Sequence record: MT446388.1
Strand: one strand, 5' to 3'
DNA: 64,000 bases
DNA from: Escherichia virus TH10
Shown here piece by piece: positions 25,901-27,658 of the stretch; position 1 is the first letter of the stretch, and each line of letters starts with the position of its first letter. Under the pieces are notes generated by a model. That model ran no database searches and was not told the origin of the DNA. It worked only from the letters and a program-made list of their open reading frames with translations. A program made the position numbers and the translations under genes.

Positions 25901-25960
25901 CAGATTTTATAGCTTATTTGGCAGATTTTTTATAAGGCTACTGCCATCCTTCCAAACTAT

Positions 25961-26018
25961 ACCAAACCTAACCCCACCTAACCCCACCTAACCCTACCAC
26001 ACCAGACCTAGCCTAACC
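25961..26018. repeat. pentanucleotide-periodic array (NNACC)x12
   Basis: ACC/GCC at exact 5-bp phase from 25961 to 26018 (accaa accta acccc accta acccc accta accct accac accag accta gccta acc). Confidence 0.85.
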
Positions 26019-26020
26019 TT

Positions 26021-26054
26021 GTTAAAAGACCCTCTTAAAGACCTTTTAAAAAGG
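26021..26054. repeat. conserved box copy 1 (gttaaaagaccctcttaaagaccttttaaaaagg)
   Basis: Near-identical to copies at 26149-26186 and 27428-27465. Confidence 0.85.
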
Positions 26055-26086
26055 TAAGTCTCATTTTAATGTAGCTGAGACTAACT
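26055..26086 (-). other. hairpin HP1 copy A (agtctca-12 nt loop-tgagact)
   Basis: Inverted repeat identical to 27466-27496; on minus strand followed by a short T-run. Confidence 0.6.
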
Positions 26087-26092
26087 ACCCAT

Positions 26093-26150
26093 ACCAGACC
26101 CTACCTTACCAAACCAGACCTCACTCTACCCCACCATACCGTATACTACC
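26093..26150. repeat. pentanucleotide-periodic array (NNACC)x12
   Basis: CC at exact 5-bp phase 26094 to 26150 with two imperfect units. Confidence 0.85.
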
Positions 26151-26186
26151 TCATTAAAAGACCCTCTTAAAGACCTTTTAAAAAGG
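26149..26186. repeat. conserved box copy 2
   Basis: cctcattaaaagaccctcttaaagaccttttaaaaagg. Confidence 0.85.
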
Positions 26187-26203
26187 AGCCTCCGAAGAGG
26201 CTA
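26176..26203 (-). terminator. rho-independent terminator of 26214..27259 operon
   Basis: minus-strand stem agcctc-ttcg-gaggct followed by ctttttaaaa; 10 nt downstream of stop at 26214. Confidence 0.65.
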
Positions 26204-26213
26204 CCTAGTCAAC

Positions 26214-26654
26214 TTAGAAAGGTTTTCTGCGTTGCTTGTTAATGTTAGCTTTCATAGCAGCTAAGTGGTTTTGCTGTTCAATTAGTCGTGAACGTTCTTG
26301 GTGGCTAAGTGCCATAGTGTTCACATTCTCAATCGCTTGAGTGGCTTGCTTTAAAGCACGACCAATCTTACCAGACATTTTACGTTTTGCAATAGTTGCT
26401 TGATGCTTAGGTTCAACCACACGATAACCAACACCCATTGAAGCAACCAGATAAATCTTCTCTTCTTTAAGAAGCTTCTCAATAAACTTCTCAAGTCGGT
26501 TTAGACGTGTAAGCGCATAAGCCTTCATTTCATCTTCGTACTTAACAATGTCACCTTGATAAGTTGGTTTCACAATACCTAAGAAGGTATCCATCTCAGA
26601 ATGTGATACAGTGTCACCGTAACTAAACTTTGCTGCTAATGCTTTTGTATTCAT
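26214..26654 (-). CDS. hypothetical protein (cassette gene 2)
   Basis: 146-aa ORF, basic C-terminus, 3-nt spacing from upstream gene. Confidence 0.5.
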   Translation of the reverse strand: MNTKALAAKFSYGDTVSHSEMDTFLGIVKPTYQGDIVKYEDEMKAYALTRLNRLEKFIEKLLKEEKIYLVASMGVGYRVVEPKHQATIAKRKMSGKIGRALKQATQAIENVNTMALSHQERSRLIEQQNHLAAMKANINKQRRKPF

Positions 26655-26656
26655 AA

Positions 26657-27259
26657 TTAAACGTTACCTTCTGAAATAACTTCTACAGAAAAACGACCAA
26701 AGCGTGGACGCCAATCACCTACACCACAAAGGTTGCCAGCATTTTCAAGAACCATCAGAAGTTCCTCTTTGGTGATTTGCTCTTCATCGAACATCAAACC
26801 GAACTCTACAGACCAGTCACGGAAGATTGGACGGTAGCTCATAACTCGTGCTGTACCAATCTTAACAGACTTAGCATAGATGAAGTCTGGATTCTTAGCA
26901 AGTTCTTGTGGGTTTGCTGGACAGTTCTTAATAGTCATTGGGAAGACTACATCTGTCAGCATAATGGCTCGGTCAATTACCTTACCAAGTTTGTTGAGTT
27001 TTGCACCAGACTTGATACAAGCCTCAATCATCTCACCGTTCATAACAAAACCAAGTTGCTCATCGTAGTAACAAGAAGTTACCAGTTGACTTTCTGCTAA
27101 GAGCGCATAGTCTTCGTCAGTCTTTTTACGTTTACTGGACAGAGACTTGTGATATTTTGTCAGAGGGTTTAATGGGTCTGACAGCGTATCGTTATGGCTC
27201 AGGAAAGGACGAGTACCAGTGATTTTGATATTTAACAGTTTCATAGCATTTAGCTCCAC
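26657..27259 (-). CDS. hypothetical protein (cassette gene 1)
   Basis: 200-aa ORF with no motif I recognise; bracketed by repeat regions. Confidence 0.5.
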
Positions 27260-27357
27260 ACTTTAGTTGATTGTTAAGTTGTTTGTAAAGAACCCTCAAC
27301 AGAAGACTCTTTAGAAACTTGGTAGATTTTTAACGTGGCTACTACCATCCACCCATA

Positions 27358-27429
27358 CCATACCGAACCTTACCTTACCAAACCAGACCGCGCCTTACCA
27401 AACCAGACCAAACATTACTTTACCCTACC
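27358..27429. repeat. pentanucleotide-periodic array (NNACC)x15
   Basis: CC at 27358-59, 63-64, 68-69 ... 27428-29 in constant 5-bp phase. Confidence 0.85.
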
Positions 27430-27465
27430 TCATTAAAAAACCCTCTTAAAGACCTTTTAAAAAGG
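27428..27465. repeat. conserved box copy 3
   Basis: cctcattaaaaaaccctcttaaagaccttttaaaaagg. Confidence 0.85.
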
Positions 27466-27496
27466 TAAGTCTCATTTTAATGTAGCTGAGACTAAC
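27466..27496 (-). other. hairpin HP1 copy B
   Basis: gtaagtctcattttaatgtagctgagactaac identical to 26055-26086. Confidence 0.6.
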
Positions 27497-27497
27497 T

Positions 27498-27595
27498 ACC
27501 CGCACTTTACCGCACCGGACCTTACCGGACCGCACATCACCGCACTAAACCAGACATCACATTACCTGACCACACCAAACCAAACATCACATTAC
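27498..27595. repeat. pentanucleotide-periodic array (NNNAC/NNACC)x20
   Basis: AC dinucleotide at every position ending in 4-5 and 9-0 from 27498 to 27595. Confidence 0.85.
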
Positions 27596-27623
27596 TTAAA
27601 AACCCTCTTAGAAGACTCTTAAG
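27591..27623. repeat. degenerate conserved box copy 4
   Basis: attacttaaaaaccctcttagaagactcttaag. Confidence 0.5.
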
Positions 27624-27658
27624 TGATGCTGGTGAGTACCCGTTGGTTTATGCTGCTC

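Follow-up and report, generated by a model that had tools for sequence, protein, structure and literature searches.

Phased pentanucleotide arrays in Escherichia virus TH10: probable guide regions of a VIPR system directed at a satellite

What are four intergenic tracts that keep an ACC motif in strict 5-bp phase doing on either side of a two-gene cassette in a lytic phage? The question was raised by a stretch of 64,000 nucleotides (nt) from Escherichia virus TH10 (MT446388.1; the whole stretch is hereafter the window), in which a sequence-only reading had singled out the tracts and proposed for them a cooperative protein-binding lattice or a structured GU-rich leader or small RNA. The window derives from a Felix O1-like myovirus (a Felixounavirus), and 251 phage records match the region. 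Locus anatomy, protein fold, identity to phage SUSP1, tail structure, conservation of GGY against variability of NN, the skip rule and target matches were computed here. The four arrays are, with high confidence, the guide regions of four vrRNA genes (U1, U2, D1 and D2) of a type II Viral Interference Programmable Repeat (VIPR) system of the SUSP1 clade, with which the phage most likely silences a parasitic satellite element. VIPR, comprising the RAMP protein Vipr, the accessory gene vap and the vrRNAs, has been described in a preprint (10.64898/2026.04.26.720920), with structures in a companion (10.64898/2026.04.26.720927).

Phased arrays beside a RAMP gene

All features of the locus (25.92-27.69 kb) lie on the minus strand. 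The arrays occupy positions 25949-26021 (D2), 26089-26153 (D1), 27350-27432 (U2) and 27500-27595 (U1), within a few bases of the limits first proposed (25961-26018, 26093-26150, 27358-27429 and 27498-27595), and read (NNACC)n on the plus strand. Parsing of the minus strand from the 3' end gave 14, 13, 16 and 19 units, respectively, a total of 62 where about 60 had been estimated. ACC occurred in phase 9-11 times out of 12 per 60 nt within the four stretches, rising to 12/12 for RCC. A compositional artefact would have shown as similar density elsewhere, and the rest of the window reached a maximum of 4, every 60-nt segment with a score of at least 5 falling inside the four stretches. A scan of the whole window found no GGT or GGY period-5 array on the plus strand. 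Arrays of this kind were also found in 20 related loci of the clade, and the array observation was confirmed as real and far from chance.

With every neighbouring gene on the minus strand, the sense reading of the arrays is (GGYNN)n, equivalent to (YNNGG)n in a register anchored at the 3' end, so that the (GGUNN)n transcript originally favoured is the relevant one. Strict YNNGG was found in 50 of the 62 units, and most others retained Y and the last G, with T or A at the first G. Over the 42 unique arrays of the 20 related loci, the register was Y (98%), N, N, G (81%) and G (95%); units of this set are non-identical copies with three conserved and two freely variable positions.

The arrays bracket two minus-strand genes, as had been noticed: vipr (26657-27244), encoding 195 amino acids, and vap (26214-26654), encoding 146. 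The cassette was retained with a revised start of its first gene, which the list of open reading frames had placed at a GTG at 27259 (200 amino acids) and which is most likely the ATG at 27244, as in the homologues and in SUSP1. Pfam gave no significant match for either protein, and PHROGs returned only families of 'unknown function'. Over 500 proteins of about 190 amino acids from diverse phages and bacteria are homologous to Vipr, and an AlphaFold model built from 37 of them reached a predicted local distance difference test score (pLDDT) of 94. The only fold matches of this model were CRISPR RAMP proteins, including Cas7-11, type IV Csf2 and type VII Cas7 (Foldseek E 4e-5); with its RRM core, G-loop and thumb, Vipr is a member of the RAMP group, of the Cas7/Csm3-like kind. 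Upon recognition of this fold, several candidates were dropped, namely binding by a TRAP-like ring, a sponge of the CsrA type, G2 quadruplexes, a Rho rut site in the C-rich strand, and a filament like that of RecT with 5 nt per protomer.

Comparison with SUSP1 placed the cassette more precisely. Vipr is identical to SUSP1 Vipr at 191 of 195 positions (98%), the differences being N18A, P119Q, V189I and I190M. One protomer per repeat has been reported for Vipr, and its GGY-, Y-pocket- and skip-base-contact residues have been named (10.64898/2026.04.26.720927): H17, K33, E71, M72, R138, C173, D177, W178 and R179 are all nine present in the window protein, and the residue given in the preprint as T175 is V175 in both the SUSP1 and the window sequences. 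Vap is identical at 145 of 146 positions (99%) to the product of the SUSP1 gene downstream of vipr. Its homologues are confined to close relatives, although the second gene in distant loci is weakly similar. The single-sequence AlphaFold2 model of Vap (pLDDT 68) has an N-terminal helix-helix-helix-beta-hairpin resembling a winged helix and then long helices, on which Vap would probably be a winged-helix and coiled-coil protein; its fold search was non-significant, with winged-helix regulators as top matches.

The association of gene and arrays extends well beyond these phages. About 129 Felix O1-like phage records carry vipr, and the flanking gene is common to about 230 records. Nine distant loci were fetched (Vipr 37-49% identical, GC content 50-69%); in eight of them, sense-strand (GGYNN)n arrays flank the gene, usually together with a second gene encoding about 167 amino acids, and none of the nine has period-5 arrays on the antisense strand. 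The adjacency of an RNA-polymerising RAMP protein and a period-5 RNA points to a ribonucleoprotein assembled repeat by repeat.

Both intergenic blocks share a modular build, in which a leader of about 26-36 nt containing a tandem repeat of about 11 nt precedes the array and one of three near-invariant tails follows it. Tail B of U1 (27459-27499; GTAG..AGTCTCA..CTAC..TGAGACT, then a T-run) recurs identically after D1 (26048-26088), tail A follows U2 (27321-27352; GTGG..GGTAG..CCAC..CTACC) and tail A' follows D2 (25920-25951; AAGG..GGCAG..CCTT..CTGCC), the last with compensatory changes relative to tail A. The three classes align without gaps and share an H-type pseudoknot, with helix 1 in columns 3-6/17-20 and helix 2 in columns 9-15/28-34. 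In this structure 89% of cells were paired, versus 31-47% in slid controls, and compensatory changes affected 7 of 11 pairs across the three classes.

These traits are those of the published vrRNAs, which have 9-16 YNNGG repeats with GGY conserved and NN hypervariable and an invariant 3' tail, folded as a pseudoknot in the SUSP1 clade; those of SUSP1 are expressed as small RNAs of about 100 nt that co-purify with Vipr (10.64898/2026.04.26.720920). The window locus shares with SUSP1 the promoter, the leader motifs, all three tail classes, the YNNGG repeat grammar, the position, flanked by the ligase gene and by the gene that lies upstream of a helix-turn-helix (HTH) regulator, and the same kind of E. 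coli satellite as target. It differs in having two vrRNAs upstream and two downstream of the cassette, instead of one and three, in all four guide sequences, and in its host phage, a Felixounavirus and not a Suspvirus. Related phages have one or two vrRNAs upstream and none to three downstream. The locus thus belongs to the clade used to define VIPR, and the element is for that reason already known; the earlier statement that no described phage element has this architecture has been overtaken by the two 2026 bioRxiv preprints, which worked with a phage encoding a 98%-identical Vipr.

Guide targets in an E. coli satellite

According to the preprint, the NN dinucleotides read double-stranded DNA with one skipped base per unit, binding represses transcription, and the natural targets of the SUSP1 clade are in a satellite phage (10.64898/2026.04.26.720920). 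The satellite was traced via its baseplate protein, reported there as 72% identical to a SUSP1 protein; of 5426 complete E. coli genomes, 474 carried it. The satellite forms an island of about 10-12 kb with two serine recombinases and with tape-measure and baseplate genes related to those of Felix O1-like phages. Six copies were fetched and all 42 guides were scored on these loci, a match of at least 80% of NN positions over the guide being counted as a target. With a skip of 1 nt, 20 of the 42 guides reached this level; with skips of 0, 2 or 3 nt none did, and unit-order shuffles scored with the 1-nt skip reached it in 2 of 420 cases. The published 1-nt-skip rule was in this way independently reproduced.

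Guide D1 matched at 23 of 26 NN positions in a promoter-like intergenic site of one satellite (L038 11001-11039; target GATAAGACCAGAGGTAGTGACCTGTTAAACAGGCTGTTT). In about 300 E. coli genomes, BLAST with the idealised D1 target matched 80% or more of its length; one of these was fetched and scored. U1 matched at 26 of 38 positions overall, its 3' nine units being perfect on the antisense strand of the satellite tape-measure gene, the predicted target of this guide; each skipped base of this match falls on a codon wobble position. U2 matched at 21 of 32 positions, with eight contiguous perfect units in a second satellite intergenic region, which is probably its target. The runs of U1, U2 and D1 each exceeded those of 200/200 unit-order shuffles, whereas that of D2 did not. 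No target was found for D2 in the six satellites or by BLAST of its idealised target, the best match being 20/28 with a longest run no better than in shuffles, and idealised-target BLAST gave no better variant for either D2 or the 5' half of U1. Within the window, no self-target attained 80%, the best self-match being 0.73.

Combined with the literature, these results suggest how the system would operate. RNA expression, ribonucleoprotein formation, filament geometry and repression are taken from the preprints and would hold here by analogy with a 98%-identical protein. Vipr protomers, one per 5-nt repeat, would form a helical filament on the vrRNA, burying the GGY bases and presenting the NN dinucleotides, which would read double-stranded DNA in a gapped register of two paired bases and one skipped. 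Binding would generate an R-loop triplex and block transcription. The guides would be aimed at the satellite island, whose tape-measure and baseplate genes resemble the phage's own, and we infer that the phage uses VIPR against its satellite during infection.

Several points weigh against this assignment or temper parts of it. Strict GG is broken in 12 of the 62 units. Under the preprint's 80% whole-guide threshold, D1 alone has a target, given the scores of 26/38 for U1 and 21/32 for U2 and the lack of a target for D2. The target search covered six fetched satellites and BLAST of idealised targets, not the full pangenome. A consensus scan of the leaders gave no sigma-70 match. The identification of Vap as a winged-helix DNA-binder, based on its model, is weak, and the mechanistic literature consists of two unreviewed preprints from one group.

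Competing readings and known systems

The strongest of the other explanations is that the arrays are cis-acting structured RNA, either two-tier G-quadruplexes or a TRAP/CsrA-like titrating leader, that controls the cassette genes. Although (GGUNN)n could in principle form G2 quadruplexes and U1 and U2 sit between the promoter and the cassette, D1 and D2 lie downstream of the cassette, behind an intrinsic terminator (26180-26202; AGCCTCTTCGGAGGCT followed by CCTTTTT), and a separate leader and 3' tail accompany every array, which leaves the GU-rich leader of the sequence-only reading without support. Moreover, the hypervariable NN positions find matches in foreign DNA, there is no match to an Rfam family, and in Felix O1 one array has been kept although the cassette that it might regulate is missing. 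Such control of the cassette was accordingly judged very unlikely.

TRAP binds (G/U)AG triplets in the Bacillus trp leader RNA. Like VIPR, it involves short conserved triplets separated by variable spacers and read by a repeating protein assembly, but fold and motif are different, its spacers carry no information and its RNA is a leader in cis, whereas here the spacers are the information. As an attenuation leader of this type the locus fails in its motif (GGY), in having two arrays 3' of the operon terminator and in having no TRAP-like protein.

The other proposal of the sequence-only reading was a protein-binding lattice that has the motif on alternating helix faces. The arrays would then act as duplex DNA, for example as phased, iteron-like sites of a replication origin or a partition site on either side of the cassette. 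In its favour, the repeats are short, phased and intergenic, and the cassette includes a probable DNA-binding protein. Yet a lattice has no need for variable positions that are complementary to foreign DNA in a gapped code. In 8 of the 9 distant loci the arrays keep to one strand with respect to vipr, every array ends with a covarying RNA pseudoknot, the adjacent protein is an RNA-binding RAMP, and homologous SUSP1 arrays are reported to be transcribed and to co-purify with Vipr (10.64898/2026.04.26.720920). Iteron and partition sites consist of near-identical repeats of about 17-22 bp or about 10-11 bp accompanied by Rep or ParB/ParR, and the window has instead 5-nt units with two free positions beside a RAMP gene. 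A duplex lattice is extremely unlikely on these grounds. What is essentially correct in the sequence-only reading is a small RNA with cooperative protein assembly, on RNA and not on duplex DNA, one Vipr protomer binding per 5-nt repeat, as the second preprint describes (10.64898/2026.04.26.720927).

The weakest explanation, a compositional or slippage artefact in the form of a functionless microsatellite, has the short tandem periodicity for it and a practically negligible probability, with no comparable phasing elsewhere in the 64 kb, units that are non-identical with three positions conserved and two free, and arrays kept beside homologous genes across phages of 50-69% GC.

The Class 1 CRISPR-Cas effector backbones Cas7, Csm3 and Cmr4 on crRNA share with Vipr the RAMP/RRM fold, the G-rich loop and the thumb, as well as one protomer per RNA repeat unit with periodic base flipping. 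By contrast, the VIPR period is 5 nt and not 6, its guide is discontinuous, with two of every five nucleotides read, each guide is a separate gene that has a leader and a tail to itself, and the whole system resides in a lytic phage. CRISPR arrays have direct repeats of about 23-50 nt and unique spacers, unlike the 5-nt period found here. No other cas gene (cas1/cas2, large or small subunit, nuclease) was found beside the RAMP gene, where the neighbours are a DNA ligase gene, vap and small hypothetical or HTH genes, and there were no Cas matches in Pfam; no scan for cas genes was run over the window as a whole. E-value-threshold searches of Rfam gave nothing credible in the window or the distant loci and no CRISPR-DR in 25.0-28.5 kb, and neither ARAGORN nor Rfam recognized anything at the window locus. 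The original view of the arrays as non-coding, non-CRISPR and non-tRNA was upheld, with the addition that they are the guide parts of small-RNA genes. Racr RNA anti-CRISPRs mimic host CRISPR repeats and poison host Cas complexes (Nature 2023, PMC10651486). They resemble vrRNAs as phage-encoded small RNAs that load RAMP-type proteins, and differ in that here the RNA and the RAMP protein alike are products of the phage, which employs them offensively.

VIPR has been proposed as a form of RNA-guided DNA recognition older than CRISPR, with a discontinuous code, that phages use against rival mobile elements. Its hallmark was here picked from raw sequence alone, which indicates that the signature is detectable without annotation. 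In a phage group commonly used in therapy and diagnostics, the analysis annotates two genes hitherto labelled 'hypothetical' and four RNA genes that had no annotation. It predicts targets in the satellite for U1, U2 and D1, and supports the skip rule and the pseudoknot of the tails independently. It also yielded observations on a composite guide, an orphan vrRNA in Felix O1, vrRNAs in satellites devoid of vipr and a leader motif beside the D1 target.

Leaders, orphan vrRNAs and the guide set

Transcription of the locus would start from a sigma-70-like promoter (TTGACA-16-TATACT, 27659-27686; 11/12 consensus positions), just downstream of the ligase gene and before the first vrRNA. The same sequence is found in the same place in SUSP1 and Felix O1. 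The leader of U1 (CACTTAAGAGTCTTCTAAGAGGGTTTTTAAG; 27596-27631), a tandem repeat of about 11 nt, is kept before arrays in the 20 related loci, and leaders also precede U2 (AAAAGGTCTTTAAGAGGGTTTTTTAA; 27433-27458), D1 (26154-26179) and D2 (26022-26047). Within the window the leader motif occurs in the VIPR locus only; this confinement, together with failure in the sigma-70 scan, ruled out the leader as a general phage promoter.

The guide U1 has a composite look. The sequence GTAATGTGATG, made up of the leader end and the first units, is repeated at units 1-2 and 7-8. The 19 units of U1 exceed the published range of 9-16, and the fact that only its 3' part matches the satellite suggests that U1 is a fusion of two guides.

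In Felix O1 (NC_005282.1), vipr and vap are absent genome-wide. An orphan vrRNA-like gene lies at about 57745-57850 on its minus strand (L039 3098-3200), between ORF87 and the ligase gene, and consists of a leader, 11 units (4 of them degenerate) and tail A'. To judge from its sequence, this state looks like the outcome of a deletion between repeated modules. The published description of the Felix O1 genome is silent on the arrays.

The satellite was found at no fewer than three integration sites, an example (L033 5700-17300) being inserted between yciI and tonB and others at dinB and at yecN-yecD; the copy in L038 is riddled with insertion sequence (IS) elements. Some satellites carry a vrRNA of their own, as the preprint also states (10.64898/2026.04.26.720920). 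Those located here (L038 10520-10609 and L037 5039-5128, minus strand) have a promoter TTGACG-17-TATAAT, 11 units and the phage's tail A. They were located by a period-5 scan, after a BLAST search of E. coli genomes with the downstream vrRNA block had given no match. No vipr or vap homologue was found in the satellites bearing a vrRNA, and these presumably borrow the Vipr of the helper phage. Neither the satellite guides nor that of the Felix O1 orphan had a convincing target in the sequences compared.

Directly after the D1 target, the satellites have a tandem-repeat motif resembling the vrRNA leader (GAAGTCTCTTAAGGGTCTGTTAAGTAAGG; L038 11041-11069, L036 5551-5579 and L037 5557-5585) that includes GAAGTCTCTTAAGGGTCTGTTAAG. 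Because the leader's repeat of about 11 nt recurs at this place, the motif could be an operator shared by the vrRNA genes and a satellite promoter; it may represent such an operator or a promoter element, possibly recognized by the putative winged-helix protein Vap. A broader scheme, advanced tentatively and with low probability, would have the repeated leader and tail modules act as recombination cassettes by which guides are added, fused and deleted, the leader motif serve as an operator for Vap or another phage factor shared with the satellite promoter, and vipr-less satellites make use of the helper's Vipr. Orphan vrRNA, guide fusion and shared leader motif go unmentioned in the portions of the two VIPR preprints that were consulted.

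Two further observations concern the surroundings of the arrays in other phages. Positions 25444-25900 of the window are 100% identical to phage KhF3 (KT184315.1), whose depositor annotated a 'direct repeat sequence4 possible binding site of StbAB' (L001 1993-2003); this annotation was considered and set aside, as it refers to a KhF3-specific insert beside the ligase gene that is unrelated to the arrays. In the distant VIPR locus of a high-GC metagenomic phage (L005 7100-7700), downstream of a vipr-like gene pair, each array is followed by a hairpin that resembles the T-arm of a tRNA, such as CCGGGTTCGAGNCCCGG. No tRNA was recognized at these hairpins by ARAGORN or Rfam, and ARAGORN found none in the distant loci; the hairpin may constitute a different tail class or a processing signal.

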